This document shows, piece by piece, positions 11,119 through 46,870 of a stretch of DNA of 52,754 nucleotides (positions are counted from its first letter, which is position 1; the number at the start of each line of letters is the position of its first letter). Position numbers and translations under genes: made by a program. The DNA is taken from assembly GCA_050175015.1 (NCBI GenBank), contig JBFXJJ010000007.1:74513-127266 (forward strand), written 5' to 3'. Origin of the DNA: Alphaproteobacteria bacterium (lineage in GTDB: Bacteria > Pseudomonadota > Alphaproteobacteria > JBFXJJ01). A model generated the notes under the pieces. That model had not been told where the DNA came from. It saw nothing but the letters and a program-made list of their open reading frames with translations, and made no database searches.

Positions 11119-11121
11119 TTT

Positions 11122-12063: not shown

Positions 12064-12107
12064 ATAATTCTCCAAAAATAGAAGTGATTTTTTTAATCAT
12101 ATCGTAT

Positions 12108-12144: not shown

Positions 12145-12162
12145 GTTTTGGGTTTTGCGCTA

Positions 12163-28014: not shown

Positions 28015-28829
28015 ACTTTTGCCCCCTCAAATGCAATAGTCAAGCAGTTCGCTGCAAGAACACCCGCCATATATTTTCTAAAATCAGCTCCTCCTCTAAA
28101 GTCTCCTTTAGGAGAAACCGCCGCAGAAATCATTTTTTCAAGCTCATCTCGAGAAGGCATCTGCACATCATCAAGTTTCTGAAAAAGGTCGGTTAAAAGG
28201 ACAGGTTTGCTAGCAACACCGCCAATAGCAATTAAAGGTTTGGCTAAAGAGTGGTCATTGTTATGACCTTTACGGCAAGATGCTGCGGCAACAATTACGG
28301 GAACAGTGCGTGCGGTTCGAGTGTATTTTAAAATCTTGGCATCTTTTTCTGGAGCCAGAGGAATTTTGATAGTTAAAATAAGATTCTTAATATCAGCTTC
28401 TAAATAATCATATAAAGGAATATCTTTTATTCCTTCATCATCTATGGTTTCTAGCACAGTATCAAGCACAAGAAGAGCAGGGGTTAAACTAAACCATGGG
28501 CTACCAGAACCAATGCTTCCTCCAAGAGTTGCTGCGTTTCTAATATTGCGGCTGCCAACGTGGCTAGCCGCTTCTTTTAGTACATCAGGAACATCTTTTC
28601 TATCGATTAAATCCTGAATAGTAACACTAGACCCTATAAACAAGGTATCGTTATTAATTTCAAATTTTGATAAGTTAAGATTAGACAACGAAATAACAAC
28701 TTCAGGATTAAGTTTTGAGTAAGACGAGTTAATCCAAGTTCCTCCGCCGATATAAAGCGAATCTTGATATTGTTTTTTTAAAGATACGGCTTCTTGAGGG
28801 GAGGTTGGTTTTAGAAAATCTTTAATCAT
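28011..28829 (-). CDS. ygfM: YgfM-like FAD-binding subunit of a molybdopterin oxidoreductase
   Basis: P.S..EA, YIGGGT, IRNAATLGG, DFRGGADFRKY; ATGA coupling to xdhD. Confidence 0.82.
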   Translation of the reverse strand: MIKDFLKPTSPQEAVSLKKQYQDSLYIGGGTWINSSYSKLNPEVVISLSNLNLSKFEINNDTLFIGSSVTIQDLIDRKDVPDVLKEAASHVGSRNIRNAATLGGSIGSGSPWFSLTPALLVLDTVLETIDDEGIKDIPLYDYLEADIKNLILTIKIPLAPEKDAKILKYTRTARTVPVIVAAASCRKGHNNDHSLAKPLIAIGGVASKPVLLTDLFQKLDDVQMPSRDELEKMISAAVSPKGDFRGGADFRKYMAGVLAANCLTIAFEGAKV

Positions 28830-28838
28830 AATAAACCT

Positions 28839-30194
28839 TTAAGACATTAGTTTTTTAGAAATACGGTTAGCATTCTTCACAATTTCTTCTTCGTCAAAGC
28901 CTACTAAACTGCCTTTATCAACGACAACCTTACCATTAACAATCGTGTATTCTGTTTGGTGATTATAGCCGCAGAATAACAAAGCTGCCGCAGGGTCAGA
29001 TAATGATCCTGCAAAGTCAAGACGGTTAACGTTAAATAATGCAATATCCGCAGCATAGCCTTCTTCCAACTTGCCGATGCCTTTGAAATTAAGGAGTCCA
29101 GCACCATTTTCAGTTGCCATTTTGTAAACGTCAGCAGCCGTTATCGCATCAGAGCCATATTTTACTCTTTGTAATAAGAGGGCTAGCCTCATTTCTCCAA
29201 GATAATCAGAACTGTCATTTGAAGCAGAGCCATCAACAGCAAGAGCAACATTAACACCCATTTTGAGCATTTCGTGAACTCGGCATATGCCTGAACCTAA
29301 ACGCATATTAGATGCAGGGCAGTGTGCAATATATGTCCCTGTTTTTTTCAAAATATCAAGCTCTTCATCATTAAAATGAATCCCATGAGCATAAGAAACA
29401 TCTTCTCCAAGAAAACCGCATTCTTCCATAAGTTTAAGCGGACGTACTCCGTGTTTTTCTAAGCAATAATCATTCTCATCAAAAGTTTCTGCTACGTGGG
29501 TATGAATGTTAACTTTATGTTTTCTTGCGAGTTTCGCGGTTTCTTTCATAAGTTCAGGAGTGACAGAAAAAGGACTGCAAGGAGCAAGTACAATTTTTCT
29601 CATAGCCATAGGAGATGGGTCGTGGAATTTATTAATAACTCTTTCGCAATCTTCAAGAATCTCATCTTCTGTTTGTACACAAGAATCAGGAGGAAGCCCC
29701 CCATCTTTTTTGCTGCAAGACATTGAGCCTCTGGTTGGAGAAAATCTAAGCCCAAGTTTTTCAGCGGCATCAAACTGAATAGACATAATGTCTCCCGCAA
29801 AACCAGAAGGATAAAGGTAGTGGTGATCGGTCGATGTCGTACAGCCTGTTTTTAAGAGTTCCGCCATTGCAAGCAGTGAAGAATAATGAACAGCTTCGTT
29901 ATCAATGTTTTTCCATATTTCATAAAGGTATACAAGCCAGTCAAAAAGTTTAGCATCTTGCACCGCAGGTAGGTTTCGGGTAAGTGTTTGATAAAAATGA
30001 TGATGAGTGTTAACAAAACCAGCGGTTGCAACTAAGGTAGAACAATCAATAACCCTTGCATCTTTTGAGGCTGTTTCTGCAATGTTTTTTCCGATTTTTT
30101 TTATTAAATTATTTTCAACTAAAATATCAACACCCGATAAATTTTCTTTTCCATATGGGGTGACAACACAAAGACAGTTTTTAAGAACAAGCAT
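28839..30194 (-). CDS. 8-oxoguanine deaminase-family amidohydrolase
   Basis: NTHHHFYQTLTR, DHHY, PCSPFSV, HTHVAET, HCPASNMRLGSG, VDGSASND. Confidence 0.88.
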   Translation of the reverse strand: MLVLKNCLCVVTPYGKENLSGVDILVENNLIKKIGKNIAETASKDARVIDCSTLVATAGFVNTHHHFYQTLTRNLPAVQDAKLFDWLVYLYEIWKNIDNEAVHYSSLLAMAELLKTGCTTSTDHHYLYPSGFAGDIMSIQFDAAEKLGLRFSPTRGSMSCSKKDGGLPPDSCVQTEDEILEDCERVINKFHDPSPMAMRKIVLAPCSPFSVTPELMKETAKLARKHKVNIHTHVAETFDENDYCLEKHGVRPLKLMEECGFLGEDVSYAHGIHFNDEELDILKKTGTYIAHCPASNMRLGSGICRVHEMLKMGVNVALAVDGSASNDSSDYLGEMRLALLLQRVKYGSDAITAADVYKMATENGAGLLNFKGIGKLEEGYAADIALFNVNRLDFAGSLSDPAAALLFCGYNHQTEYTIVNGKVVVDKGSLVGFDEEEIVKNANRISKKLMS

Positions 30195-30318
30195 AAAATA
30201 CTTCCTAATTATAATTATTGTTTAAATAAAAGTAGCCCTAAAATATTAAAAGGTTTTTATAATAATTCAAGTATTACGTATTTCTAAAATGTTTTTAACA
30301 AAAAATATCCAAAAAACA

Positions 30319-30346
30319 TTGACTGTTTCCGCAAAAAAGGTAAAAA
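30319..30346 (+). promoter_or_regulatory. Candidate sigma70 promoter of paralog 1
   Basis: TTGACT-N16-TAAAAA; the -10 is weak. Confidence 0.4.
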
Positions 30347-30392
30347 CTAATAGAGTTAAATATCAATTACATAAAATTAAAAAGGTAAGGAT

Positions 30393-32618
30393 ATGGCCGA
30401 AGAAAAATTAGATAATGAAATAAAACAGGCTTTAGAGGCTTTTTTTGATAGTCAGGTTAGCATTTATGAAGCGGGGGAAGGCTCTGATAGACCTAAAGAA
30501 TTTTTAGACAGACCTTTTGTTGATCTTCTTCCTGCCAGCAAAACCTATTTTGTTGAATCCTTAAAGCAAGATCTTAAAGGCGATGGTTCTTATGCTTTAA
30601 CGGTGAACGAACCATTCAAAAATGGTTCTTTAGATACTAAAGCAAGTAAGACTTTTCAAGCGATTGAAGAGCGTTTTAATAAGGTTAAGCCTGATCAAAA
30701 ATTGTTTGTAATTGATGCCGATAGTATTCGTTCCCGCTATGCTATGGACGAATCTTTTGACCGTAGTCTAGGTAAGAGCATTATCGAATATGTTAAAGAG
30801 AAAAAACTAAAATATGGCGTAGAAAACAATTTCCCTGCTGCTAAAGAAAATGTAGAACATTTAATTGATTCAGCGTTTAAAGCAACAAGCGCATTTTCAA
30901 GAACACAGCCAGCTAATGTTACAGAAGAAAATCTAAAAGGTGATTTTTGTGTAAGTTTAGTTGTGGTTCAGAATCCTGATGATTTGCAGAAAAAATGGAT
31001 GGTTCAGGTGCCAGGTGTTCCTGAAAGAATGGAGAGAGATGGTTTAACACACGATAATCTCTGCCGTTTTACAATTTATCATGAATTTGGGCATGCTCTT
31101 GATGATTTAAGCAATAGAGGTAAGGTTCCTTATTTAATAGAAGCCAATCCAGAAAAAATTATGACTCGTTACCGCAAAGAATGTTTTGCTGATGCTCACG
31201 CTGTGTTGCAGATGGCAAGAGATGATAAGCATACTAGATCTGGGGAGCTTTTAGCTGATATTAGAATTTCTAATGTCTCTCGCAGGGTTCTGGACCTGCA
31301 AGGCAAAAAAGGCAAAGATGCTGTTAAGCCTGACATTGAAAAAAAATTAGAAAAAATGCAAAAAGCCCAAGTTATAGATGAAAACGAAAGCAAATCATCT
31401 AAAGCCATTAGGAAGCTTGAAGAATATGACGAAAAGTACAGCGACATCTCAAAAATAGGCGACCATATGGCATATTACACAACTCCAGTTGTTGATGCTG
31501 CGGTTGAATTTGCCAAAAAAGGACTTGCAGATGGCTCGCTTTTGAAGATGAGCGATGAGGAAGTTTTAAAAGCCTGCCGCCAGCTTGTTAATGATAATAC
31601 ACTTTCAAATGATCGTATGAGTGAACTTAGATTAGATATTTTTAAAGGAAATTTTGAAAATCCAGATATTAAGACTATTCAGGCTCGTTCACTTATTGCT
31701 GATAATAATATGCCAATTCCTCGTGAAAATATTTTGAGTGAAGCTGAGCAAACTAAAGAAAAAATGAAAGCATCAAACGATAGAAAACTTAAAGCAATGC
31801 TTGGAATTCCTGTCGAAAAACCAGCTTCGGCGCCGGTTAATCCAACAGATCTTCTGAAAAAGATATCTGATGAACAGAGTTTAAAGAATTGGAGTGCTGG
31901 CATTATTGATCGTATTGAAGAAAGCGGTTATACCAAAGAAGGCATTATTAAAATTACTAAAGAAGAGAAAGATGAAATTAGACAATATCATGGTAGAACA
32001 CCAGATACATTAAGAGAAGCTAAGCTTAAGTTTCTTAATGATGCCCTGCTTGCTCACCCAGATGTTTATATTGCAAAATCAAAAACAAGAGTAACTGTAA
32101 GAAACAGTATAGAATCTGTCAAAACAGTTGGTTCTTCAGAAAACAGAGAAAACACCGTTTCTGAATTCTTAAAATTGAAAGTAGCCGCAGCTAATTACGC
32201 ATCAGATTCAGTTGAAAACGCTATGAAAACAGATTTGTCAAGCTTAAGCCCGGAAGAGTTTTTAAAAGCAAAGAATAGAGAAGTTGTTAACTATAATAAA
32301 ACGTTGATAGCCGAAAAAACCTCGCAGGAAGTAGCATTTGCTATTTGCCGTAATAAAGAGGAATTTGATTTTCTAAGAAAAACAAGTCCTAGCACAGCAG
32401 AGTTGGTGCAGAACGCAGCTAAAAAAAGACACCCAAGCTGGATGGAAGATTATCATATGGCTTTTGCATCAAATGATAAGTCTCAGTTATCAACAACGTT
32501 GAAAAAAATAGCCGCGTATGGTCAAGGGGTTGTTGATATCAATAAAAAGCTTGAGCTCAAAGAGCAGAATCATGCGATGGCTATTGCTTTAAGAAGATTA
32601 AACGATGGTCGTTCTTAA
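30393..32618 (+). CDS. Uncharacterised HExxH zinc-metalloprotease-like protein, paralog 1 (741 aa)
   Basis: HEFGH at 31080-31094, then RKECFAD; shares collinear blocks with 36158 and 38909. Confidence 0.8.
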   Translation: MAEEKLDNEIKQALEAFFDSQVSIYEAGEGSDRPKEFLDRPFVDLLPASKTYFVESLKQDLKGDGSYALTVNEPFKNGSLDTKASKTFQAIEERFNKVKPDQKLFVIDADSIRSRYAMDESFDRSLGKSIIEYVKEKKLKYGVENNFPAAKENVEHLIDSAFKATSAFSRTQPANVTEENLKGDFCVSLVVVQNPDDLQKKWMVQVPGVPERMERDGLTHDNLCRFTIYHEFGHALDDLSNRGKVPYLIEANPEKIMTRYRKECFADAHAVLQMARDDKHTRSGELLADIRISNVSRRVLDLQGKKGKDAVKPDIEKKLEKMQKAQVIDENESKSSKAIRKLEEYDEKYSDISKIGDHMAYYTTPVVDAAVEFAKKGLADGSLLKMSDEEVLKACRQLVNDNTLSNDRMSELRLDIFKGNFENPDIKTIQARSLIADNNMPIPRENILSEAEQTKEKMKASNDRKLKAMLGIPVEKPASAPVNPTDLLKKISDEQSLKNWSAGIIDRIEESGYTKEGIIKITKEEKDEIRQYHGRTPDTLREAKLKFLNDALLAHPDVYIAKSKTRVTVRNSIESVKTVGSSENRENTVSEFLKLKVAAANYASDSVENAMKTDLSSLSPEEFLKAKNREVVNYNKTLIAEKTSQEVAFAICRNKEEFDFLRKTSPSTAELVQNAAKKRHPSWMEDYHMAFASNDKSQLSTTLKKIAAYGQGVVDINKKLELKEQNHAMAIALRRLNDGRS

Positions 32619-32648
32619 AAATAATTAGTTAGACATATTTTTGATAAT

Positions 32649-32683
32649 AAAAAACGCTCAGCCAAAAAACTGAGCGTTTTTTT
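32649..32683. terminator. Intrinsic terminator (bidirectional)
   Basis: AAAAAACGCTCAG-CCAAAAAA-CTGAGCGTTTTTTT. Confidence 0.8.
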
Positions 32684-32844
32684 GTTCAGAATCTATGATT
32701 TATGCATCATTTTAAAAAAATCCTTAACAATCCTAAAACTTTATTTAGATAAAAATTTTACTTTTGCTTTTACTAAAAGACAAGTTGAAGGTAGACGCTT
32801 GCCGCAAGACAAAATAAAAGCGTATAATTGAGTTAACATTGCTC

Positions 32845-35655
32845 TTAGTGAGCTTCTTCCCAGTTATTTGCAATTCCAGCATCAACAATTAACGGCACGG
32901 ATAGATTCACAATATCAGCCATAATGCCCTTGATTTTTTGAGCAAGATTGTCGGCATTTTCTTTCGGAGTTTCAAAAATTAATTCATCGTGTACCTGAAG
33001 CAGCATTTTGGCATTCATTGCTTCCTTCGTTATTTCTTTCTCAATTTTTATCATTGCCATTTTGATGATATCTGCTGCGCCGCCTTGGATTGGAGCGTTG
33101 ATAGCAGCTCTTTCTGCGAAACCTCTGATATTGCCATTTTTGTGATTTATACCGTCGATATAACATTTTCGCCCGAAAGGAGTTAAAACGAAGCCATTTT
33201 TACGGGCAAAAATTTTAGTTTCTTCCATATATTGATTAATTTCAGGAAACTTAGCAAAGTATGAATCGATGTATTCTTTTGCTTCGCCTCTTGAAATACC
33301 AAGTTGAGCGGCTAAACCAAAAGGTGATATGCCGTAAATTATACCAAAGTTAATGGCTTTAGCCTTGCGCCGTATAAGACTGTCCATACCTTCAATAGGG
33401 ATCCCAAAAACTTCAGAAGCAGTGGCAGCGTGAATGTCAACACCATTTTCAAAGGCTCGTTTCATCGCTGGAATATTAGCAACGTGAGCCACAAGGCGAA
33501 GTTCAACTTGAGAATAGTCGGCTGCAACTAAGCTGTAGTTTGATGGAGCAATAAAGGCTTGACGGATTTTTCTTCCTTCTTCATTACGAGCGGGTATGTT
33601 TTGCAGATTAGGATTACTTGATGAGAGACGTCCTGTTGAGGTTATCGTTTGAGCAAAGCTTGTGTGAACTCTTTTGGTTTGAGGGTTTATTTGGTTAACT
33701 AGAGCGTCGGTATAGGTGTTTTTTAACTTAGAAAATTGACGCCATTTCAGGATATACTCTGCTATTTTATGCCCTTCATCTCTTAGATTTTCAAGTGTTT
33801 CAGCGTCAGTTGACCATGAACCTGTTGCCGTCTTTTTGCCCGTATTAATTCCCATTTTTTCAAATAGAATTTCGCCAAGCTGTTTTGGCGACCCTATGTT
33901 AAATTCGGTTTCAGAAAGATTAAAAATCTCGGCTTCAAAATCTTTGATATATTTTTCAAATTCAAATTTAGCTTCATTTAGTTTAGTTGAGTCAACTAAT
34001 ATCCCCCGCTGTTCCATAGCACATAAAACATTAATTAGAGGACGCTCTATTGTTTCATAAAGAGTTACCATTTTTTCTTCAAGCAGGCGTTTTTTAAAAA
34101 AGTGCCAGAGTTTTAATGTTACATCAGCATCTTCTGCGGCATATTGAGCGGCTTCATTTAATTCAACTTCAGCAAAGTTTTTTATTCCCTTTTTCTTATC
34201 GCAGACATCTTTGAATAGAATCGTTTGATGGTTAAGGTGAATTTTTGCCAATTCGTCCATACCGTGACCATTTTTGCTGCCGTCAAGGACATAAGACATA
34301 ACCATTGTGTCATCAATCGGCGATAAAGCTAAGTTTCCTTGATAGGCTTTAACAAAAACGTGGTAGTCAAATTTAATGTTGTGCCCAATTTTTAAAAGAC
34401 CTTTATCTTCTAACAAAGGCTTAAGTTCGCTCAAGACATCTTTAAGAGGTATTTGCGGCAGAAGTTCGGTTGGTTCTGCCGTATCAAAAAAATCAAATGA
34501 GCTTTGGGCTTTTTTGGCAATATGACCAACTGGGATATAAAAAGCTTCGTTTTCCTCAAAGGCCAAAGATATTCCAACAAGGTGAGCTGAATGAGGATCA
34601 AGGCTGTCGGTTTCGGTATCAATAGCAAAGTATCCTTTTTTCTCAGCCTCTTTTAAGGTGCTTTTTAAGCTTGGTAAATCTTGTATTAATTTGTAAACAG
34701 GTGGTTTTTTGGAAGTATTATCAACTTTGATGCTGTTGTTTTCGGAATAAAGAAGCGGTTCTGATATTGTTTTGTTTTCTCGGTTGTTATTAAATTTTTT
34801 AAGCCAGCTTTCAGCTTTGGTTTTGAGGCTTCTAAATTCGTGTATTTCAATGAAATTCAAAACATCATCAAGCAAAGGAGCTTTCGTTAGAAAATCATCA
34901 ATTTTGATGTCATCTAAAGGAACATTAGGGCATAAAGTTACAAGCTTTTTAGAGATTAAAGCTAAATCTTTGTGTTCTATTAAAAGCTCTCTTCTTTTGT
35001 TTTGTTTTATTTTAGCCGCATTATCTAAAAGGTTTTCTAAAGTATCATATTCATTAATTAAAAGAGCCGCAGTTTTAACGCCGATGCCAGGAACACCTGG
35101 AATGTTGTCTGATGTATCTCCTGCAAGGGCTTGGACATCAATCACTTTTTCTGGAACAACCCCAAATTTATCGACAACTTCAGGAATATTGATAAATTTA
35201 TTTTTAATCGGGTCATAAAGTTTGATTTGATCGTTAACAAGCTGCATTAAATCCTTATCCGCAGAAATAACCGTAACTTCCATATTTTCTGCGGCGGCTT
35301 TATTTGCCAGCGTTGCAATCAAATCATCGGCTTCAAAGCCCTCTTTCTCAAGCATAGGAAGACCAAAAGCACCCACAGCATCACGAAGCAGAGGAAACTG
35401 AGGAATAAGTTCTTCAGGGGTTTCTTTACGATTGGCTTTGTAGTCAGCATAGATGTCATTTCTAAAATTTTTGCGGGCAGCATCAAAAACTACAACCGCA
35501 TATTCCGCCTGCATTTCAGAGACGAGACGCATCAACATATTGGTGAAGCCGTATACTGCGTTTACAGGTGTTCCATCTGAACGAGTCATTGGAGGAAGGG
35601 CATAAAATGCTCTGAAAATATATCCAGAACCATCAATTAAAAAAAGCCGTTTCAT
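32845..35655 (-). CDS. polA: DNA polymerase I
   Basis: LIDGSGYIFRAF (5'-3' exo), IDTET (3'-5' exo), TGRLSSSNPNLQNIP, DYSQVELR, RRKAKAINFGIIYG, LQVHDEL. Confidence 0.99.
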   Translation of the reverse strand: MKRLFLIDGSGYIFRAFYALPPMTRSDGTPVNAVYGFTNMLMRLVSEMQAEYAVVVFDAARKNFRNDIYADYKANRKETPEELIPQFPLLRDAVGAFGLPMLEKEGFEADDLIATLANKAAAENMEVTVISADKDLMQLVNDQIKLYDPIKNKFINIPEVVDKFGVVPEKVIDVQALAGDTSDNIPGVPGIGVKTAALLINEYDTLENLLDNAAKIKQNKRRELLIEHKDLALISKKLVTLCPNVPLDDIKIDDFLTKAPLLDDVLNFIEIHEFRSLKTKAESWLKKFNNNRENKTISEPLLYSENNSIKVDNTSKKPPVYKLIQDLPSLKSTLKEAEKKGYFAIDTETDSLDPHSAHLVGISLAFEENEAFYIPVGHIAKKAQSSFDFFDTAEPTELLPQIPLKDVLSELKPLLEDKGLLKIGHNIKFDYHVFVKAYQGNLALSPIDDTMVMSYVLDGSKNGHGMDELAKIHLNHQTILFKDVCDKKKGIKNFAEVELNEAAQYAAEDADVTLKLWHFFKKRLLEEKMVTLYETIERPLINVLCAMEQRGILVDSTKLNEAKFEFEKYIKDFEAEIFNLSETEFNIGSPKQLGEILFEKMGINTGKKTATGSWSTDAETLENLRDEGHKIAEYILKWRQFSKLKNTYTDALVNQINPQTKRVHTSFAQTITSTGRLSSSNPNLQNIPARNEEGRKIRQAFIAPSNYSLVAADYSQVELRLVAHVANIPAMKRAFENGVDIHAATASEVFGIPIEGMDSLIRRKAKAINFGIIYGISPFGLAAQLGISRGEAKEYIDSYFAKFPEINQYMEETKIFARKNGFVLTPFGRKCYIDGINHKNGNIRGFAERAAINAPIQGGAADIIKMAMIKIEKEITKEAMNAKMLLQVHDELIFETPKENADNLAQKIKGIMADIVNLSVPLIVDAGIANNWEEAH

Positions 35656-35836
35656 AAAATAATCCTAAAAACAGTTGTAATTTCAAAAAAACATAGTAAT
35701 TAAATAACATGATTTTATCTATTTTTATTTTATTGTATTTTTTTTGTTGAAAAAATAGACTAAAAAATGTATTTAATAAAAATGAGACAAATTTTTTTAT
35801 CTCTCTCTATGACTTTTTATGAAGGAGGCTATCAAA

Positions 35837-36112
35837 ATGGCATTAAAAGTTACAGCAGATTTTATGGAAAATGAAAAAGGCGAGATCTTGCTCGCAATTC
35901 CTGCTAGTGAAGGTGAACCTCTCGAGCCGACTCTTTCATTCAATGAAGATGCTTCCGTTGCCGAATTAAAACGCAGTAAAGGGCAAATGATTGAAATTCC
36001 TAACATTCACCCAGATATTAGAAGCAAACTTCTAAAAACAACAAAAATTCTAGTTACTGAAGTCGGTAACAATAAAATTAATAACGGATATTATGTTACG
36101 GTTACGAAATAA
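35837..36112 (+). CDS. Small partner protein A (91 aa), paralog of 38599..38889
   Basis: AAGGAGG RBS at 35822-35828 before ATG 35837; shared VTAD..EN..G..LLA, NIHPD.R.KL, KILVTEVG, NGY. Confidence 0.85.
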   Translation: MALKVTADFMENEKGEILLAIPASEGEPLEPTLSFNEDASVAELKRSKGQMIEIPNIHPDIRSKLLKTTKILVTEVGNNKINNGYYVTVTK

Positions 36113-36157
36113 ACTTTTTTGAGATGTAGTAAAAAAAATATAAGGTGAAAAATAAAA

Positions 36158-38443
36158 ATGGCTGAAATACAATTACCAAATGAAATAACAAAAGCATTAC
36201 AGGATTTTTTTCAGAATAAGGACATAACAGTTTATGAAGCAGGTTTAGAAGAAGATCGTCCTTCTAGAATTCAAGACCGTCCTTTCTTCGACGTCGTTCC
36301 TGAATCTGAGACAACATGGTTGGCAAATAAAGAAGGTGCTAAAACAGCTGGAAGTTATAAGTTAGCTTTAGGAGCTGAACAGGAACCAAATACCAATACT
36401 CTTGATACCGAAAGCCATAAATTCATTCAAGATGTAGAAAAACGTTTTCGTGATCTGCAGCCAAATGCAAAACTTTTCATTATCGATCCCGATGTTGTTA
36501 TGGGACGCTATGCTATGGATACCTCAAGAGATCGTAGCATTGGTAAATCAATGGTTGAATTTCTGCATGATAAATTAACAGAGAATAATATTACGGAACA
36601 TAAGGCAGAGCCTGGTGATGAAAGTGTTTTTGTTCCCGCATCTATTACAGGAAATTCACCATTTAGTATGCCTCTTCCAACAGGAGTTACAGAGGAAAAC
36701 CTTGCTGGTACTGGAAAAATATGTGTTGTTGTTGCTTCTAATCCAGACAAGATTATGCACGATTTATGGACTAGAGTTCCTGGCTCAGAGGAACGTATGG
36801 CTGAATTAGGAATAGATTTTGATTCAACAAGACGTATGGTTCTTTACCATGAGTTGGGTCACTCTATGGATATTTGGTCAGATAAAGGTGTTGGTAATCC
36901 TATTACAAATAATAATATTGTAGACCAGACGTTAAGACGTCATAGAACAGAATGCTTAGCCGATACGTTTGCAACCCTTCAGGTTGCTAGAGATTTTAAA
37001 TCTACAGCAACTCCAGAATTGATGGCAGACTTAAGAGCTTGCTTTGCTTATGAAGGTTTTAAAGAGGATTCTCCAGAACACCGCGCTAAAATGAAAATGT
37101 TTAGTATTCTGGGTGACGAACGGAAAAAACATGAAAAAACCAAAAAACTAGAAAAGAAAATGGGAATAGCTGAAGTTCCAACAAAAGCAACTAAAGATGT
37201 TTTGAAACTTGAAGAAACAGCTAAAGATTTTGAAGTATTAAAATCTATTGGAATGACGTTGGCTTATAATGTAACTCCAATTACTGATGTTGCGATTAAA
37301 GTTGCAAAAGAAGGTTTAAAAGACGGTTCTTTATTGAAAATGACAGATAAAGAAGTTCTTGAACTTGCGGAAAAGATTGTTGAAGAAAATGCTTTTGATA
37401 AAAACCGTTTGAATCAAGCTGCCATGGATATCTTAACAGGAAATAAAGAAAATCCAGATCTTAAAGCTATTGAAAATCGTTATCAGCAAGCTTTGTCAAA
37501 TATGCCTCTTCCTGCTAGTGAAATGGCGAAACGTTTAGAAGAAAAACAGAAAAAACAAGAAGAAGCTATTACCAAACAACTTAGAAAACAACTTCACTTA
37601 AAGGTTGAAGATGAGATAAAACCAAAGGGTAATCCGGAAGAAGTCGCATCTCTACTAAGATGGGTTGACAATGTTTACGATAATATCGAGAGAAAAGGCG
37701 GCAATCTTTCGGCTATTGTTTCTTCTGTTTCTGAAGAAAAAGATAAACTCAGAGTTGGAAAAAGTGCCGATAAGCTATATGATAAAAAACTTGCGATTTT
37801 AGATGTTATGTTTATTAATCAAGCTCCAGAAGTCGAACTTGGAATCAAGGCAAGTGCGGCTGTTGCAAAATCTATTGAAGCTTTAGATGTTAAAATTGAT
37901 GGCTTGGATGGTGTATCTGGGGTAAGTTTGATTAATGCTTTTATCCAATATGAAATGGGCAATGCTAAAAAATGTGTTGAAAACATTGCCGCTAAACAAG
38001 AAGTTGATTATGCATCAATGGATATTGTTGAACTGAATAAGGTTCAAGCCAAAGAAAATCAAGAGTATGTAGGACTTCTTTCTGGTGAGAAAATTTCTCA
38101 GGCTTTAGCTGTTAAAATTCGTACAGACAAGGAAGCTTGGAAAGTTGTGAGTGGTTCTGAGAAAATGAGAGATTTGGTTACCAAAAAAGCATTGGGACGT
38201 CCTAGTGATTGGCTTGCAAGTTACCACATTTCTTTAATCGAGAGAAGCCGGGATCGTCAAGAAGATGTACTGTCAAACATAGGGGTAAGCAATATGAACT
38301 ATGCTAGTGCTGTTAAAGAAATTAATAAGAAAGCCTCACAAATGAATGGTGTGGATAAAACTGAAATTGTTTCAGTCAAGCCTCAGAAAACGGCACCATC
38401 AATGCCAAACGTTTTAATGGCATCTAAGTTAAGTCAAAGATAA
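36158..38443 (+). CDS. Uncharacterised HExxH zinc-metalloprotease-like protein, paralog 2 (761 aa)
   Basis: HELGH at 36848-36862, then RTECLAD. Confidence 0.8.
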   Translation: MAEIQLPNEITKALQDFFQNKDITVYEAGLEEDRPSRIQDRPFFDVVPESETTWLANKEGAKTAGSYKLALGAEQEPNTNTLDTESHKFIQDVEKRFRDLQPNAKLFIIDPDVVMGRYAMDTSRDRSIGKSMVEFLHDKLTENNITEHKAEPGDESVFVPASITGNSPFSMPLPTGVTEENLAGTGKICVVVASNPDKIMHDLWTRVPGSEERMAELGIDFDSTRRMVLYHELGHSMDIWSDKGVGNPITNNNIVDQTLRRHRTECLADTFATLQVARDFKSTATPELMADLRACFAYEGFKEDSPEHRAKMKMFSILGDERKKHEKTKKLEKKMGIAEVPTKATKDVLKLEETAKDFEVLKSIGMTLAYNVTPITDVAIKVAKEGLKDGSLLKMTDKEVLELAEKIVEENAFDKNRLNQAAMDILTGNKENPDLKAIENRYQQALSNMPLPASEMAKRLEEKQKKQEEAITKQLRKQLHLKVEDEIKPKGNPEEVASLLRWVDNVYDNIERKGGNLSAIVSSVSEEKDKLRVGKSADKLYDKKLAILDVMFINQAPEVELGIKASAAVAKSIEALDVKIDGLDGVSGVSLINAFIQYEMGNAKKCVENIAAKQEVDYASMDIVELNKVQAKENQEYVGLLSGEKISQALAVKIRTDKEAWKVVSGSEKMRDLVTKKALGRPSDWLASYHISLIERSRDRQEDVLSNIGVSNMNYASAVKEINKKASQMNGVDKTEIVSVKPQKTAPSMPNVLMASKLSQR

Positions 38444-38471
38444 CACAATTTGTTTATAATTTGATTTTTTT

Positions 38472-38502
38472 AAGGAGTGCTTAGTAATAGGCACTCCTTT
38501 TT
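38472..38502 (+). terminator. Intrinsic terminator
   Basis: AAGGAGTGCTTA-GTAA-TAGGCACTCCTTTTT. Confidence 0.85.
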
Positions 38503-38543
38503 ATAATTTTTTTGACAATTATTTTATTTTTGTCCGAAAATTA

Positions 38544-38571
38544 TTGACTTGATTTTTTTTTGAAGTAAACT
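38544..38571 (+). promoter_or_regulatory. sigma70-type promoter of the partner B / paralog 3 unit
   Basis: TTGACT-N16-TAAACT. Confidence 0.55.
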
Positions 38572-38598
38572 TATTAAATAATATAAGAAAGTTATTTT

Positions 38599-38889
38599 AT
38601 GGATAGTAAAATTTTGGAAATAAGAGTTACCGCAGATATTTTAGAAAATGGCAGAGGTGATTTGCTGCTGGCTTTTCACGCAGTTGAGGGCAAGCCAGAA
38701 GCACCATCTTTTACAATAAACGAAGGAACTGGGGTTTTATCTCGAAATGCTACGCAGAATGTTGTTATTGGTAATATTCACCCCGACGTAAGGCAGAAAT
38801 TATCAAATGCTAACAAAATTTTGGTAACAGAGGTTGGTTCGCAAGGGATTGTTAATGGTTATTTTGCGAATGTAAGGGCAATGAATTAA
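38599..38889 (+). CDS. Small partner protein B (96 aa), paralog of 35837..36112
   Basis: About 42 identities over 91 aa with partner A by manual alignment; ends 19 nt before paralog 3. Confidence 0.85.
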   Translation: MDSKILEIRVTADILENGRGDLLLAFHAVEGKPEAPSFTINEGTGVLSRNATQNVVIGNIHPDVRQKLSNANKILVTEVGSQGIVNGYFANVRAMN

Positions 38890-38908
38890 AAAATAAGGAG
38901 AATTCAAG

Positions 38909-41251
38909 ATGGCGGAAAGTGAAATGAGCAAAGAAGTTATGACTGCTCTAGAAGACTATTTTAACAGCCCTATTCAAGTTTATGAATGTGGTAGCGAGCA
39001 AAATCGCCCTGAGCGAATTCAGGATAGACCATTTCTAAAAACACTACCAGATGGCCATACGGTATATGTCCAAAAAACATCTGCAACCAAATCTGTTGGT
39101 TCTTTTGCGCTTTCTTTAGACAAACCGATTATTGGCGGCTCAATTGCTGCTGAAACCGAAAACAGTAAATTCTTGCAGGAAATGCAGGAGCGTTTTAGAA
39201 ATGCTAAAGAAGATGTTAATTTAATTATTATTGATCCCGATGTTATTCGTGGTCGTTATGCAATGGATGAAAATCCCCGCCGTACATTATTCCAAAGTTT
39301 TTATGAATATTTACATGGGAATATGGAACAGGACGGAGTATCTAAAGCAATGCCTCTTTCTAAAGAAGATTATGGTGTGCTTATGGAATCCGCAATATTG
39401 GGCAACAGTCCGCTATCTCTTGGGGTGCCAATTAAAGGTTTGGGACAATATGCTATTGTTATATCAAGTCAGCCTGATATGCCAATGCATGATATGTTTA
39501 CCTCAATTCCTGGTTCAGAAATTCGTATGGAACATCTTAAAATTGGCAAAGAGCATGTCCGTGATATGATTCTGCTTCATGAGTTAGGTCATGCATTGGA
39601 TACGCTTAATAAGCAAGAAGATGGCGACACTATTGCTGATGATATTTTAAAACGTCATAGAACAGAATGTGTTGCCGACGTTCATGCAACTTTGCAGACA
39701 GCTAAGAAGTATGGCAGTACAGATGTTGGCAAGCTAGTTAGTGATATTCGTATTGATAACACTGTTCAAGGTATTGCCTATATTCAAAGGCAGCTTTCTG
39801 GAGGTATGGGGCTTGAAGGTGATGTCGAAGGTCTTAAAGGAGCTTCAAGACTTACCTTAAAGACAGTTGATAATGTTTTACGTGAAGATTTTGAAAAACA
39901 AAAATACTTTGCTTCTCCTGAACTAAAAGCTTTTGTTGAAGCAAAAGGTGCAGAGAAAAAGAAAGCTAGCGGCAGCAAAAAAGTTAGTGCTCCTAAGCAG
40001 CCTTCTGCTCAAGACGTACTTGAGAATATTGAACAGAGTGCTCAGCTTCTTAACGTTGCAGAGGTTCTTGGTTCAATTTCATCTTATACCACAAGCTTTT
40101 GTGCCGATGCTGCTGTTAAAATTGCTGACAAAAAATTAAAAGACGGCAGTTTAGCAAAAATGACAGATAAGGAAATTCACAAGCTTGCAGAAGAAATTGT
40201 TGCTAAAGAAGCCTTTGACAAAGCTCAAATTACGGGCTTGGTAATGGGTATGATAACAGGGGAAGAAACTCCTGAATTTATTAAAATCGTTGATCGTTAC
40301 CAAGAAGCAACAACTCGTTTTCCTGAGGACAAGAAAAAACAGGCTGAAGCTCAAATGGCAGCTATGGGTTTCCCTGTTCCAAAGCCAAAGCTCACCCCAG
40401 AAGAAACTGTAAGTTTCAAGAATTGGTGGGAACGTGAAATGGCAGAAAAAATTGAAGCCAAGGGTTCAACGAGAGAAGCCTTGCTAGGTGTTGTCGAAGC
40501 TGAAAAAGATGAGGCTCGTAAAGCTGATACTCTTTACAACCAATATAAAATTGCGGTTATGAATCAGTTGTTTATGGAAAACCCTGATAGAATGACAGAT
40601 AAAGCTAAAACTTTCGGAACAGTTAGAGATACTTTGAAAAATATTGAAGCTCCAGTTGTTGAAGAAAAAGGTTTAAAAGCTGTAGCTGCTTTTGTTGAAA
40701 CGGAGATGAAAGCTTTAGATACAGGTTTGAAAGCTGTAGAATTAGCTGAAGGCAGGAATATTGCTTCAATGTCTCCAGAAGTGTTTGCAAAGACTGTTTC
40801 TAAAGAAAGCAGAAATCTTAAGAAGCTTTATGAAGAGCAGAAAAAACTCCAAGCATTGGCTTTTGCTATTCGTAAGGATCCAGAAGCTTGGGAAGCTGTA
40901 AGCAAGACTCCTCTGTTAGCACAGAAAATTGAGGAACAAGCTAAACAAAAGCATCCTGTTTGGGTTGAAGGCGTTCACCTTAATTTAGGACAGAATACTG
41001 CTCAGGATTTAAAAAATTCAAAAGATGGAATAACGCTTGATAAAAAAGTTTTAGCATCATGTGTTTTACAATCTGAGGCGGTTTCAGGCGTGGTTGCGAA
41101 AACAACACTTAAGAAATTAGAAAATGAATTACCTCAACAGCAAGGTTCTTCTTCTGGTCTTAAGAGTGAAAGTAGTCGTAAAAAGCGCGAATATACTGAA
41201 TCAGAAGGAATAAGATGGAATCTTTTGAACAAAACAGGACGTTCTAAATAG
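38909..41251 (+). CDS. Uncharacterised HExxH zinc-metalloprotease-like protein, paralog 3 (780 aa)
   Basis: AAGGAG RBS; HELGH at 39578-39592, then RTECVAD. Confidence 0.8.
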   Translation: MAESEMSKEVMTALEDYFNSPIQVYECGSEQNRPERIQDRPFLKTLPDGHTVYVQKTSATKSVGSFALSLDKPIIGGSIAAETENSKFLQEMQERFRNAKEDVNLIIIDPDVIRGRYAMDENPRRTLFQSFYEYLHGNMEQDGVSKAMPLSKEDYGVLMESAILGNSPLSLGVPIKGLGQYAIVISSQPDMPMHDMFTSIPGSEIRMEHLKIGKEHVRDMILLHELGHALDTLNKQEDGDTIADDILKRHRTECVADVHATLQTAKKYGSTDVGKLVSDIRIDNTVQGIAYIQRQLSGGMGLEGDVEGLKGASRLTLKTVDNVLREDFEKQKYFASPELKAFVEAKGAEKKKASGSKKVSAPKQPSAQDVLENIEQSAQLLNVAEVLGSISSYTTSFCADAAVKIADKKLKDGSLAKMTDKEIHKLAEEIVAKEAFDKAQITGLVMGMITGEETPEFIKIVDRYQEATTRFPEDKKKQAEAQMAAMGFPVPKPKLTPEETVSFKNWWEREMAEKIEAKGSTREALLGVVEAEKDEARKADTLYNQYKIAVMNQLFMENPDRMTDKAKTFGTVRDTLKNIEAPVVEEKGLKAVAAFVETEMKALDTGLKAVELAEGRNIASMSPEVFAKTVSKESRNLKKLYEEQKKLQALAFAIRKDPEAWEAVSKTPLLAQKIEEQAKQKHPVWVEGVHLNLGQNTAQDLKNSKDGITLDKKVLASCVLQSEAVSGVVAKTTLKKLENELPQQQGSSSGLKSESSRKKREYTESEGIRWNLLNKTGRSK

Positions 41252-41270
41252 TAATATTTAGGAAATATGT

Positions 41271-41303
41271 AAAACCGCTGTTTAGCAATAGACAGCGGTT
41301 TTT
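41271..41303 (+). terminator. Intrinsic terminator
   Basis: AAAACCGCTGTTTA-GCAA-TAGACAGCGGTTTTT. Confidence 0.85.
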
Positions 41304-41541
41304 GTTTTTAATGATTGGTTTAAAAAAGTTGTAATTAAAATACGTTTTCCAAGATTATATAACTAAATCAAAATATCCTTATTGTGAATTTCTAAAAAAA
41401 CAAAAACAGATAATCATTTTGTTTGAAGTTTCGTTATAAAAACTGCCTTTGTGACTATGTAACTACAAATGTATTTGACGAAAGCTGATTTGTTTCGTAT
41501 TAGTTATATAAGTTAATTATTTTTTAAGCTAACGGTGTAAT

Positions 41542-42186
41542 ATGGAAGCAAAAGTAGCAATTCAAAACAGCCATAAAACAGCTTATGTTGTCCCTTGTTC
41601 AAACACATTTCGCAATGATGTTTTAGAGCTGGCTAAAAAGAAAAAAGTTAATGCTGGAGATTTAGCTCGTTCTATTTTTCTAATCTTTTCTAAAGAGGAA
41701 ATTGAAGCTTTTCCTGACACCGCAGAGCCTGATATCTACGAGAGAGAAGAAGTTGTCTTAAAAAGCGGTACAGCTAAAGGACAGAGTTTTAAGAGGAAAC
41801 CTCGTTTGCAGGTAAGAATGCCTCAGGGACTTTCAGCATCATTTATAAGAAAATCATTATTAATGGCGCTCGCGCTTGAAAAAAAAGAATTATCGTTAGA
41901 GCTTGACCAAAAGCAGACACCTAAAAAGAATGACTTAAAACAGGAAATAGATCGTTTAAAAACGGTTATTTCTCATCTAGCGTTTGAACCACTTAGAGAT
42001 GGGGTTAGAAGCAAAGATGAAGCTTTATTTGTCTTAGGCTTTCCTCCGCACTCTAATCCAGATTTAACGCTGGCTAAAGTGAAGTTTAGAATCTTGGCAT
42101 CTATTTTTCACCCAGATAGCATTTTTGGAAGCCACGATCGTATGAGTAATATTAATTCAGCTATGGATTTTTTCAGAAATAGATAA
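41542..42186 (+). CDS. Protein with a C-terminal J (DnaJ-like) domain
   Basis: ALFVLGF...KFRILASIFHPD...M..INSA (HPD motif); N-terminal domain unrecognised. Confidence 0.75.
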   Translation: MEAKVAIQNSHKTAYVVPCSNTFRNDVLELAKKKKVNAGDLARSIFLIFSKEEIEAFPDTAEPDIYEREEVVLKSGTAKGQSFKRKPRLQVRMPQGLSASFIRKSLLMALALEKKELSLELDQKQTPKKNDLKQEIDRLKTVISHLAFEPLRDGVRSKDEALFVLGFPPHSNPDLTLAKVKFRILASIFHPDSIFGSHDRMSNINSAMDFFRNR

Positions 42187-42334
42187 CTTTGAAAGTCATT
42201 ACTATGTTTGATGTTAAAGCTTTAAAGAATAATTAAACGTGCGAAATAATTAAAAATATAGCTGTTAAATAAAATAAATGCTTTCAAATATTGATGGATT
42301 TTTTGGTTGTGATTAGTCATAGTTTAGGGTTAAT

Positions 42335-42373
42335 AAAAAATGCGCAATAGACTTCAAGTCCGCGCATTTTTTT
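42335..42373. terminator. Bidirectional intrinsic terminator
   Basis: AAAAAATGCGC...GACTTCAAGTC...GCGCATTTTTTT. Confidence 0.7.
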
Positions 42374-42492
42374 GTAAATATAAAAACAAGATAACTAAAA
42401 AGTTGAGAATGGTTATCTAAAAAACAATTGATACACCAATTTTTTGCTCACAATCAAAATATTTATGCTTAGCTATAATTAGTATTTAAGAA

Positions 42493-43776
42493 CTAAGCTA
42501 ATTTTTCTAAAAAAGCATTAATATTTTTGTTAAGGCTGTCAGCGTTATGAGTAAGTTTGCCCGCAGCTCTTGTTATATCTTCTGCGCCGCTTTTAGTTTC
42601 AATAGATGTTTCTTTGACAATAGAGATAGCATCAGAAACCATACGAGCACTATCGGCTGCTTCCGTAACGTTTCTAGCAATCTCGTGAGTTACAGCGTTT
42701 TGTTCTTCAACAGCACTAGCAACAGCCGACGATGCTTCTTCAATATCTGCAACGATAGCGCTTATATCTTCTATGGCTTTGGAAGCATTGTCTGAAACTT
42801 CCTGCATTTCAGCAATTTGAATAGAGATTTCCTGAGTTGCTTTTGATGTTTGATTTGCAAGATTCTTTACTTCGTTAGCAACAACCGAAAATCCTTTTCC
42901 TGCTTCTCCTGCTCTTGCCGCTTCTATGGTTGCATTAAGTGCCAGCAAGTTAGTTTGAGATGAAATCTTGTTAATAAGCTCCAAAACAGCATAAATTTTA
43001 TTAGTTGCCACACTTAAATTTTGAACAGTTTGACTTGTAGCTGCGGCTCTTTCTGCGGCTTGTTTAGCGACAGATGAAGATCTGGAAACCTGTTCAGTTA
43101 TTTCTTGAATAGATGCTGAAAATTCTTCAATGGCTCCAGCTACAGCTTGAACATTAATAGATGCTTGCTCTGCGGCATTAGCAACAGAAACCGATTGTTT
43201 GTTAGTGTCAGAAGCTTGGGCGTTTAAGGCAATAGAACTTGCTTCAAGCTCGGTAGCCGCCGTGGAAACAGCTTCGGCTATAGGTCTAACGTGATTATTG
43301 GCAAAATTGATAAATTCTTCGTCACGTTTTGCCATCAAATCCAGAGAAGAGTTAATGGTTTTGGCAAATGAAGCAAAGTTGCCCCTGAGACCAGAAGTCA
43401 AAATATGGCGAAAATATTTTCTTTGATTAGCATATTCCATAGCCGTATTTGCTTCTTTTGCAAAAGCTTCGGTTAAATCCATAATGCGGTTAACAGCTAT
43501 AGCCAAATTTTTTAAATTGCCAGTGTCTTTAATATCAGTAATTCTGATGTTAATGTCTCCTTTTGCTGCTTTTTCTAAAATATTAGCGTATCTTTCTATT
43601 TCGTTATAGGAAGTATCAAAGGTGTTAGCTGCTATGATAAAAACAAAGGCGATGCCAGCTAAAATAGGGGTTGTCCAAAAAGGAAGAAAAAAAACAGAAA
43701 CACCACAACCAAGGCAAGCTGTTGCTGCAATTATACAACACACTCTTTTATTAAATACTAAAGATAAATTCTTCAT
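42493..43776 (-). CDS. Methyl-accepting chemotaxis protein (CetA-like)
   Basis: N-terminal TM hairpin, HAMP-like region, [34 protein letters not shown]. Confidence 0.95.
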
Positions 43777-45186: not shown

Positions 45187-45813
45187 TTAACGGCTATTGC
45201 CTTTTGCTTTAATTGTTGCGGCATAACGAGCTTGCGCATCAGCTTCTTTTTTGCGTTCAGCTGCAATCTCCTGACGGACTTTAATAGCTGCCTTTTTATA
45301 GGATTCATAGGATTCTTCATAATATTTTTCAGGATCTAAAGGCATACGACCTCTAGATAAATCCTTATCAATTTTTGCTCCAACAAGCTCTAAATCCTGC
45401 AGAGTTGCATTTTGATTAGAATCACAGGTTTTAATATTAGTAAAATCAGCATTTTTTACGTGGCAGAAAAAGAAGTAGCTTGATTCCATTTTGGCGCCGC
45501 AGAACTTAGCTGATTCCAAATCGGTTCCATAGAAAGCCGCATTACGAGTATCAGCATTAGTAAAATTAGCGTTTTTCAGTTTAGCGCCCTGTAATTGTGC
45601 TCCTTGAACATCTGCACCTTCAAAATCAGCGCCATCAAACTTGCCGCCTCTTAATTTAAGACCGCTAAGATCTTGATTTCTTAAATCTGCTCCAGATAAA
45701 TCTTTTCCTTTTTCTACAGCTTCTTGAATCATTTGTCCGAAGTTGCGAGCATATGTTGAGTAAAGGACTACACCTTCTTTGTTTTTGACCTCATAAACGT
45801 CAGGCTTATTCAT
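45187..45813 (-). CDS. Pentapeptide-repeat protein with basic C-terminal tail
   Basis: A(D/N)(L/F)xx repeats (ADLRN, ADFEG, AKLKN, ANFTN); AGGAG RBS before ATG 45813; ends IKAKGNSR. Confidence 0.88.
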   Translation of the reverse strand: MNKPDVYEVKNKEGVVLYSTYARNFGQMIQEAVEKGKDLSGADLRNQDLSGLKLRGGKFDGADFEGADVQGAQLQGAKLKNANFTNADTRNAAFYGTDLESAKFCGAKMESSYFFFCHVKNADFTNIKTCDSNQNATLQDLELVGAKIDKDLSRGRMPLDPEKYYEESYESYKKAAIKVRQEIAAERKKEADAQARYAATIKAKGNSR

Positions 45814-45946
45814 AACCAAAATCTCCTAAAAAAAGATAGAAACAAACTAAAACATAAAAGCTATTATTTTTAATTTTCAATTTACACTTCATTTGATTTA
45901 TTTGCTAGGTTTTTTATAAAAACAAACAATAAAAAATACAAAAAAC

Positions 45947-45986
45947 AAAAAGGAGTGAGGATAAAAAATCCTCTTCTCCTTTTTTT
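45947..45986 (-). terminator. Intrinsic terminator after the EF-hand gene
   Basis: AAAAAGGAGTGAGGAT...ATCCTCTTCTCCTTTTTTT. Confidence 0.75.
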
Positions 45987-46007
45987 GTCTTTATTTATTA
46001 CTTAGTA

Positions 46008-46793
46008 TTAAGCAACAGCTGCAGTGTTGAAGTATTCTGAAGCCGCTGAACTATAGGACTTTATAGCTTGGCTTAAGCCTGATGTGTTAGAATTGTCTTC
46101 TCCGTATTGTTCTTTAAGCATATCAACAAACAGAGCGATTTCAGAAGCTGAAATGTTTCCATCTTGATTCGTATCCATTTGATCAAAGTATGAAGCAAGA
46201 ATGTCGTCATCACTTTCTTCTGTTTCAGAGGTTTCCTCATCTTCTTCTGGTGGTGGCGGAGGAGGGGGGGCTCCTGCTTGTTTATTTTCTTCCATAGCAC
46301 TTAAATGGGCTTCATTTTCTGCTTGGGAGATAACGCCATCACCATCGGTATCAACCTCACTTAAAAGGGTTGATGCCTGTTCTGCGCTTAAACCAAAAGC
46401 TTCGGCAAGTTCATCACTTGATATTGATCCGTCACCATCGGCATCTAATTTACTAAAAATATCGTCAGCAGATATTCCGTCACCAGAATCATCAGTTTCT
46501 TGAACTTGAAGTAATGCTGCTTGGGTTTCTTCTGCTATTCTTGTTTGAAAGGCAGAATCTTCCTCTTGAGTAATTATGCCGTCACCATTAGCATCAATTT
46601 CATTGAACATCTCTTGGGTTTTGCTGGCATCTTGTACGTCATTAGGAAAACTCTGACCTAAAATGGCAAATTCCTGAAAGGTTACCCCTTCATCTTGATT
46701 GGTATCGGCTTGTTTAAAAAGAGAGCTGGCCTTACTTGTGCTGTAGCTCTGCTGAGTAAACAAACTGCTTAACCCTAAACTACTTATACTCAT
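46008..46793 (-). CDS. Acidic EF-hand Ca2+-binding protein with poly-Pro linker
   Basis: Five DxxxDxxxxxxE-type loops (DTNQDEG, DANGDGI, DADGDGS, DTDGDGV, DTNQDGN) and a PPPPPPP tract. Start MSISSL at 46793, with AAGGA upstream. Confidence 0.88.
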   Translation of the reverse strand: MSISSLGLSSLFTQQSYSTSKASSLFKQADTNQDEGVTFQEFAILGQSFPNDVQDASKTQEMFNEIDANGDGIITQEEDSAFQTRIAEETQAALLQVQETDDSGDGISADDIFSKLDADGDGSISSDELAEAFGLSAEQASTLLSEVDTDGDGVISQAENEAHLSAMEENKQAGAPPPPPPPEEDEETSETEESDDDILASYFDQMDTNQDGNISASEIALFVDMLKEQYGEDNSNTSGLSQAIKSYSSAASEYFNTAAVA

Positions 46794-46854
46794 ATCTAAA
46801 ATCCTTGAATATGTCGGTTGTTTGCATTCTGCAATTTTTTCTTGTCGTATAAGA

Positions 46855-46870
46855 TGCAAAAATCGTGCCT
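46855..46870 (-). promoter_or_regulatory. sigma54 (-24/-12) promoter of the EF-hand gene
   Basis: Minus strand AGGCACG-ATTT-TTGCA (GG-N10-GC). Confidence 0.7.

Follow-up and report, generated by a model that had tools for sequence, protein, structure and literature searches.

An enzyme encoded together with a small cognate binder is a known kind of system. Protealysin, an M4 zinc protease without a signal peptide, is described as sharing one operon with emfourin, a small intracellular inhibitor that binds the active-site region of the protease in a 1:1 ratio (PMC9505478), and class I type III chaperones are described as binding the N-terminal ~70 residues of their effectors by means of a β-strand motif (PMC3280449). 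Here, we analyzed a two-gene unit that occurs twice in a 52,754-nucleotide stretch of an alphaproteobacterial contig (JBFXJJ010000007.1; the whole stretch is termed the window), in which a small gene is followed by the gene of a large HExxH metalloprotease. The inhibitors of serralysin-type proteases (Inh/AprI) and the adaptors of the type VI secretion system (T6SS; Eag/DUF1795 and DUF4123) are further examples of small, partly β-rich proteins encoded beside the enzyme or effector that they bind. An initial annotation of the window had proposed an inhibitor or antitoxin, a secretion chaperone, or an activating cofactor as possible functions of the small protein. The results presented below suggest that each unit encodes a soluble zinc metalloprotease, from an unassigned HExxH...ExxAD family of gut Alphaproteobacteria, along with a dedicated small binding partner that would act on the N-terminal segment of the protease.

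The two units and the conservation of the pairing

In the first unit, the small gene (35837..36112, + strand), encoding partner A (91 residues, pI 5.4), lies 45 nt upstream of the gene for the protease paralog P1 (36158..38443, +; 761 residues). Partner A consists of a β-rich domain of ~85 residues belonging to a family without a library match, and P1 of an N-terminal α/β HExxH domain (residues ~1-300) and an all-helical C-terminal region. In the second unit, the gene for partner B (38599..38889, +; 96 residues, pI 6.1) precedes that of the protease paralog P2 (38909..41251, +; 780 residues) by 19 nt. The HELGH motif is encoded at 36848..36862 in P1 and at 39578..39592 in P2, followed by ECLAD at 36950..36964 and ECVAD at 39665..39679, respectively. 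Partners A and B are 48% identical over 89 residues (E 6e-29), and P1 and P2 are 33% identical over 745 residues (E 4e-114). The initial annotation had recognized the small genes as paralogs from a comparison by hand (~45% identity) and had placed each of them just upstream of a protease paralog; both observations are confirmed. An alternative, longer start of partner A at ATG 35819 exists, but the ATG at 35837 is preferred because AAGGAGG, its ribosome-binding site, lies 7 nt ahead of it and because the homologs begin at the equivalent residue.

Each unit ends in a terminator-like hairpin, at 38472..38499 (+; 12-pair stem with 5 GC pairs, then a T-run) for unit 1 and at 41271..41302 (+; 14-pair stem with 5 GC pairs) for unit 2. 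Among the 13 such hairpins found in 30000..42600 (8.4 ± 2.6 in shuffled sequences), these are the top two in strength. The terminators proposed as unit boundaries are thus retained, whereas the promoter proposed near 38544 carries no evidential weight, given that promoter-like hexamers, including those at 38512 and 38544, are found at chance frequency (39 matches versus 38.1 ± 6.7 expected). The two units would be transcribed separately, each with its own terminator.

A third protease paralog, P3 (30393..32618, +; 741 residues, with HEFGH and ECFAD motifs), is 34% identical to P1 (E 2e-117) and had not been linked to the units in the initial annotation. It is separated from the first unit by polA (32845..35655, −) and has no small partner, since just 198 nt lie upstream of it before a divergent gene. 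No third or degenerate small copy was detected in the window by tblastn with 11 family members or with the hidden Markov model of the superfamily. At the DNA level, the two units are alike in coding sequence only (60-75%), and no regulatory DNA common to the regions upstream of both units and P3 was found, just AT-rich sequence, indicating that the duplication is old. The units would be old paralogs of one small-plus-protease unit.

A word-indexed search returned 58 protease clusters at 90% identity, of which two belong to the window; the named ones are hypothetical proteins from metagenome-assembled genomes (MAGs) of Alphaproteobacteria. A scan of species-representative genomes yielded 36 protease loci in 28 assemblies, nearly all from gut, rumen or faecal Alphaproteobacteria, with two or three paralogs in 6 assemblies. 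A maximum-likelihood tree of 44 rows groups 26 loci, one per assembly, in a single clade (SH-aLRT 100%), and P1, P2, P3 and the other extra copies are located outside this clade, on long branches. P2 groups with the loci L029 and L030. One locus, L020 (CAVCSV010000023.1), comes from a bin labelled Limosilactobacillus gorillae; its protease is near-identical to those of Alphaproteobacteria MAGs and is placed beside L033 in the tree, and the contig is probably mis-binned.

In 5 of the 36 loci (L003, L004, L028, L030, and L035), all outside the 26-member clade, a small homolog immediately precedes the protease gene in the same orientation, with a gap of 14-38 nt; the small-family profile, the superfamily profile and tblastn agree on these five. 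The sole other small-domain match at the loci is a distant stand-alone member (L034:951-1319, −) located 4.6 kb off on the opposite strand. Together with the two window copies, this means that all 7 close small homologs with a visible context are directly upstream of a protease. The initial annotation had taken a prevalence of small homologs without the protease as a sign against a functional pair; the close homologs show the opposite, whereas the members of the wider superfamily are mostly stand-alone or fused.

The arrangement beside polA is also conserved. In the MAG CSMAG_1913, one locus (L028) carries polA (minus strand), a small gene, and a protease gene running off the contig end, and another (L030) carries the C-terminal piece of a protease gene, a small gene, and a protease gene. 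These two loci correspond to the polA / small-protease / small-protease order of the window, and the two polA products are 57% identical. The presence of the same tandem beside a polA of this divergence indicates that it predates the split of the lineages, which supports the earlier proposal that the pair was duplicated as a unit. This proposal is plausible; the identities of the small proteins (48-51% within a genome and 40-43% between genomes) leave the copy-to-copy match undecided.

L029 comprises polA, a protease without a partner that is placed as the sister of P2, and a homolog of the window ORF 41542..42186 (+). This 214-residue ORF, located just downstream of unit 2, matches neither a Pfam nor an NCBIfam family, shares 49% identity (E 8e-68) with the ORF L029:9027-9671 of this syntenic polA-protease locus in the MAG SZUA-500, and carries at its C-terminus an HPD tripeptide reminiscent of J-domains. 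In a horse-faeces MAG (L005:5968-8304 and 9952-12618), no more than 1.7 kb separate polA from a partnerless protease of the 26-member clade, so that a location near polA may be ancestral for the protease family.

The predicted complex and its binding site

We modelled the complex of full-length P1 (45-row alignment) with partner A (11 rows), this being one pair, in three runs and with three controls. The interaction prediction score from aligned errors (ipSAE), which is the model's own confidence and not a measurement, was 0.78, 0.76, and 0.73 (median 0.76), compared with 0.00 for the best of the 3 controls. At least 96% of the contacts were common to the runs, and the predicted local distance difference test score (pLDDT) of the partner was at least 84. 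The mark applied is reached by 116 of 157 solved complexes and by 2 of 215 mismatched pairs, a calibration that is rough here because our own alignments were used. Since neither chain has a solved look-alike, it is unlikely that the model passed by remembering a solved complex. Conserved adjacency, co-orientation, and the complex model, taken together, make it likely that the small protein and the protease form a physical pair.

It could be argued that the small gene is merely carried on the protease transcript, without any function there, as most members of the protease family have no small gene. Such a bystander appears very improbable: all 7 close small homologs with a visible context keep the same position and orientation, while the partners themselves have diverged to 27-51% identity, and the modelled complex passes where the controls score 0.00.

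The confident contacts of P1 are at residues 4-69 only (codons 36167..36364, +), with none at the HExxH motif (231-235) or at E265. The closest pairs involve residues 23-28 of P1 and residues 6-12 and 54-61 of partner A. The interface of partner A comprises residues 4-14, 16, 18, 20-22, 42, 54-61, 72-77, and 79-86, and its motifs are those conserved across the superfamily; 17 of the 29 family-conserved residues are found in this 37-residue interface of a 91-residue protein (Fisher one-sided p 0.016). Of the two docking sites envisaged in the initial annotation, the HExxH cleft and the N-terminal region, the model of A with P1 thus points to the latter, at the predicted residues 4-69.

Based on this model, we propose that the conserved face of the small protein, made up of the TADxxEN strand, the NIHPD turn and the LVTEVG...NGY hairpin, would clamp the first ~70 residues of the protease, partly via strands added to the protease strand 23-28. 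The small protein would hold, stabilise or escort this N-terminal segment in the manner of a chaperone or adaptor, and would place no plug in the catalytic cleft. In the P1 monomer model, confidence within the catalytic half is lowest over the first 80 residues (block means 52-78), which fits a segment needing a partner.

The predicted site at residues 4-69 favours an N-terminal holder (chaperone, adaptor, or regulatory subunit) and argues against an emfourin-like active-site plug. A cognate inhibitor or immunity protein would silence the protease inside the producer and would be left behind or displaced upon action. A gene pair made of a protease and a small predicted binder is what such a role would require, and an upstream position of the small gene would mean that the inhibitor is made first; the protealysin-emfourin pair, as described with one operon and 1:1 binding at the active-site region (PMC9505478), provides a precedent, and steric or allosteric inhibition from the N-terminal subdomain is conceivable. 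Nevertheless, the model places no contact at the catalytic residues, and 31 of the 36 loci as well as P3 retain the invariant catalytic residues without an adjacent partner, suggesting that self-protection is not generally needed. Moreover, the small proteins show neither a Pfam inhibitor family at E up to 1 nor a PDB fold match. We therefore consider an inhibitor rather unlikely, and inhibition of the active site, or an antitoxin role, is the least favoured of the three options of the initial annotation. What is supported of the initial interpretation is the conserved pair itself, with a modelled complex that passes its controls.

The small protein could also be a folding or activating cofactor, i.e. 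a pro-domain in trans that the divergent paralogs need in order to fold or become active, without a transport role. Partners are found only beside fast-evolving extra paralogs with long branches outside the 26-member clade, the N-terminal segment is of low confidence when modelled alone, and the complex model predicts strand addition, all of which would be expected of such a cofactor. On the other hand, the partnerless proteases L002 and L029 are sisters of partnered proteases in the tree (tblastn revealed no frameshifted partner upstream of L002), and no similarity to known propeptide domains was found. A cofactor seems quite unlikely to us, although the present data do not separate it from a chaperone- or adaptor-like holder of the N-terminal segment.

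The protease family and the superfamily of the small protein

The AlphaFold2 model of P1 (pLDDT 80.3, predicted template modelling score 0.73) consists of an α/β N-terminal half, then an all-helical region to about residue 726. An alignment of 47 relatives shows ten invariant residues (H231, E232, G234, H235, D238, R261, E265, C266, A268, and D269), giving the pattern HExGHxxD followed by an ECxAD helix. The HExxH motif of zincins (H231, E232, and H235 in P1) is invariant in the 47 sequences and present in P1, P2, and P3. In the predicted structure, E265 and D269 of the ECxAD motif are on a helix (254-280) located after the HExxH helix (221-236). We take this pattern to resemble that of gluzincins, among them the M4 and M13 families, in which a Glu located in an ExxxD context on the next helix provides the third zinc ligand.

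No Pfam, NCBIfam, PHROGs or PADLOC family was reached for the protease, and a PDB sequence profile search returned nothing. Foldseek searches of the PDB used the full-length P1 model, a poor choice of query compared with the catalytic domain alone, and gave no match at E ≤ 0.001 (best 0.35), with DPP III at ranks 24 and 40 and a probability of ~0.1. In the ESM Atlas, the nearest clusters of the protease N-domain are without a Pfam family. Peptidase_M91 (PF14891), a family of NleD-like effector proteases that are minimal HExxH zincins, was considered and rejected: P1 and P2 scored 17.3 bits (E 0.0064) and 12.8 bits, respectively, for a gathering cutoff of 25 bits, and just 3 of the 47 family members gave a match at E ≤ 0.1. 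The HExxH helix is common to both families and the weak matches are centred on it, whereas the present family has its own invariant ExxAD helix and a helical C-terminal region of ~450 residues. The window also encodes a 424-residue protein (21390..22667, −) with a match to the putative metallopeptidase DUF6782 (E 2e-45), which is unrelated to the cassette proteases according to hhalign; kinship with DUF6782 obtained a probability of 0.5%, with 13 columns around HExxH aligned and no more. Signal peptides and transmembrane segments are absent from both the protease and the small protein (maximum Kyte-Doolittle 19-residue mean 1.21).

The close relatives of the small proteins amount to 11 clusters among 5.8 billion proteins, 2 of them from the window; all are on short metagenomic contigs and they divide into A-like and B-like sets. 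Two of these proteins are extended, P0010 by 25 extra N-terminal residues and P0011 by a 70-residue low-complexity C-terminal tail, and both extensions probably result from errors of gene calling or from frameshifts. A profile search of 1.84 billion representatives retrieved 299 proteins at E ≤ 1e-3 and 28 at E ≤ 1e-10, so that the superfamily comprises at least 299 clusters at 50% identity. These superfamily members are mostly 90-130 residues long, and the matches span positions ~10-93 of the 95-position profile. The motif D.LEN..G.L.L ... IHPD ... ILV.E ... Y is common to 35 stand-alone members, including both window proteins, which match the profile over their full length and are thus members of the superfamily. 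A search with the 35-member alignment retrieved 117 clusters, mostly of ~116 residues, and the few that are named come from Alphaproteobacteria MAGs, indicating that the same bacteria also hold superfamily members that are not linked to the protease. Alphaproteobacteria MAGs commonly contain such stand-alone ~116-residue members (P0097, P0216-P0322, and the one at L034:951-1319, −).

The small proteins are acidic to neutral (pI 4.5-6.1), and the AlphaFold2 model of partner A (pLDDT 89.8) contains nine strands and one helix. For both small proteins, no Pfam family was found at E ≤ 1, and NCBIfam, PADLOC and PHROGs gave no match. With the small-protein model, Foldseek found nothing at E ≤ 0.001 in the PDB (best 0.16) or in BFVD (best 0.068), and the ESM Atlas gave no usable feature match. 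Two candidates were discarded. A weak PDB profile match of the superfamily to the MxiH needle protein (E 0.0012, 21.8 bits) was judged to be due to chance, as MxiH is helical whereas the small domain is predicted to be mostly β, and the CS/HSP20-like structure rows from the ESM Atlas (TM ~0.58) rest on the Atlas's own low-confidence model. A weak small-domain match was also present in one unannotated, unverified phage scaffold. The initial annotation regarded the pair as an undescribed system; this holds to the extent that Pfam, NCBIfam, PHROGs and PADLOC contain no matching model for either protein, so that neither is covered by a curated family model, while the literature was consulted for known analogues and domain combinations only.

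Pfam domains were scanned in 62 of the 150 superfamily matches listed, namely the closest and the longer ones. No stand-alone member among the 62 reached any Pfam curated cutoff. The longer matches often carry the domain in tandem, and in 13 of the 62 it is C-terminal to a TIR_2 domain; the other joined domains are Sel1 (6), ankyrin (3), DUF805 (2), RyR (2), and GYF_2 (1), and both RyR-joined proteins also carry TIR. The 13 proteins with an N-terminal TIR_2 and one or two C-terminal copies of the ~85-residue domain are P0074, P0095, P0096, P0105, P0114, P0115, P0118, P0125, P0136, P0147, P0189, P0203, and P0215, two of which have a RyR domain at their end. ThsB-like models are the ones that the TIR parts match.

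These fusions raise the possibility that the ~85-residue domain is the sensor or regulator of an effector, as in conflict systems: it would sense a trigger protein or peptide and then free or activate the enzyme tied to it, which is a protease in the present units and a TIR domain in the fusion proteins. The recurrence of the domain with TIR_2, Sel1, ankyrin, DUF805 and RyR, the similarity of the TIR parts to ThsB-type models, and the fact that the conserved face of the domain is its predicted protein-binding face are in line with this idea. However, PADLOC has no model for the small or the large protein, and the genomic context is of another kind. The neighbours vary between loci and are housekeeping genes (CLC channel, 5'-nucleotidase, aldo-keto reductase, FtsK, LolA, polA, GGDEF-EAL), the position beside polA is kept in distant genomes, no secretion or mobile-element genes and no defence island were seen near the 12 loci examined, and the plasmid and phage collections contained no match to the protease. 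A sensor of this kind is accordingly improbable in our opinion, and on the same four grounds (PADLOC, housekeeping neighbours, polA synteny, plasmid and phage collections) a toxin-antitoxin or defence system was rejected.

Several observations weigh against a holder of the N-terminal segment. Binding was predicted in a single modelling job for a single pair (A with P1), and the interface of P1 shows no significant enrichment of conserved residues (7 of 11; p 0.16). The identities of the partners follow those of the proteases (rho 0.47-0.56), a correlation confounded by kinship. No adjacent partner is found in 31 of the 36 related loci, for P3, or in the whole 26-member clade, and the partnerless proteases retain the conserved N-terminal residues E27, G29, R41, and F43, which points to a partner-independent role of this region. 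Secretion-system genes are near none of the 12 loci examined nor in the window, leaving an escort role without a known destination. A partner bound to the N-terminal subdomain might also mask the cleft sterically; furthermore, the TIR fusions keep a sensor-effector function alive, and the protealysin-emfourin precedent does the same for an inhibitor. On balance, we give an even chance to a dedicated N-terminal-binding partner, chaperone- or adaptor-like, rather than an active-site inhibitor.

The small proteins may be the first superfamily members with a visible client. We tentatively suggest that the domain could be a general strand- or peptide-capturing module, joined in other bacteria to TIR, Sel1, ankyrin, RyR and membrane domains, and that gut Alphaproteobacteria put it to use as a clamp dedicated to the N-terminal segment of a zincin family specific to their lineage. 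In that case, the partnerless proteases could be served by the abundant unlinked ~116-residue members, encoded at other places in the genome, and the TIR fusions would recognise their triggers with the same face. The small protein would offer a concrete client pairing for a widespread ~85-residue domain without a library family; knowing what it binds, and how, would give a first functional handle on the whole superfamily and would also show how little-studied gut bacteria control or deliver a conserved protease. A plain inhibitor pair would be one more instance of a known theme.

Two other regions of the window are worth mentioning. Region 25153..30194 (−) encodes the Mo/Fe-S subunit (TIGR03313, 1306 bits) and the FAD subunit of a molybdopterin-dependent oxidoreductase as well as an amidohydrolase of the 8-oxoguanine deaminase / SsnA type, and looks like a selenium-dependent purine hydroxylase locus. 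In region 45187..46859 (−), a pentapeptide-repeat protein adjoins an EF-hand protein whose match to the XopAW family of calcium-binding effectors stays below threshold (101.5 bits for a cutoff of 120).

Comparison with known enzyme-partner systems

Inh, CesT-type and the other Pfam inhibitor and chaperone families gave no match with the small proteins. Compared with Inh/AprI, Eag and DUF4123, the small protein has no Pfam match at E up to 1 and no signal peptide, and, for the T6SS adaptors, no T6SS genes were seen in the window or near the loci examined. The resemblance to protealysin-emfourin lies in the two-gene operon and in the combination of a zinc protease lacking a signal peptide with a small binder, the binding being predicted in the present case. 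The systems differ in the site of binding, which is predicted to be within the N-terminal 69 residues of the protease and not in the active-site region, and in the small protein, for which there is no PDB fold match at E ≤ 0.001.

Class I type III chaperones differ from the small protein in several respects: there is no sequence or fold match, the small protein is mostly β with its nine strands and one helix, no type III genes are present in the window or at the loci examined, and the bound region of the protease is partly folded in the monomer model. In the class I chaperone-effector pairs InvB-SipA, Spa15, and SpcU-ExoU, however, a small acidic protein is likewise encoded beside its client, and the interface predicted here, with strand pairing at residues 4-69 of the protease, resembles the way in which such chaperones are described to bind. 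By analogy, class I type III chaperones would be the nearest functional counterpart of the small partners.

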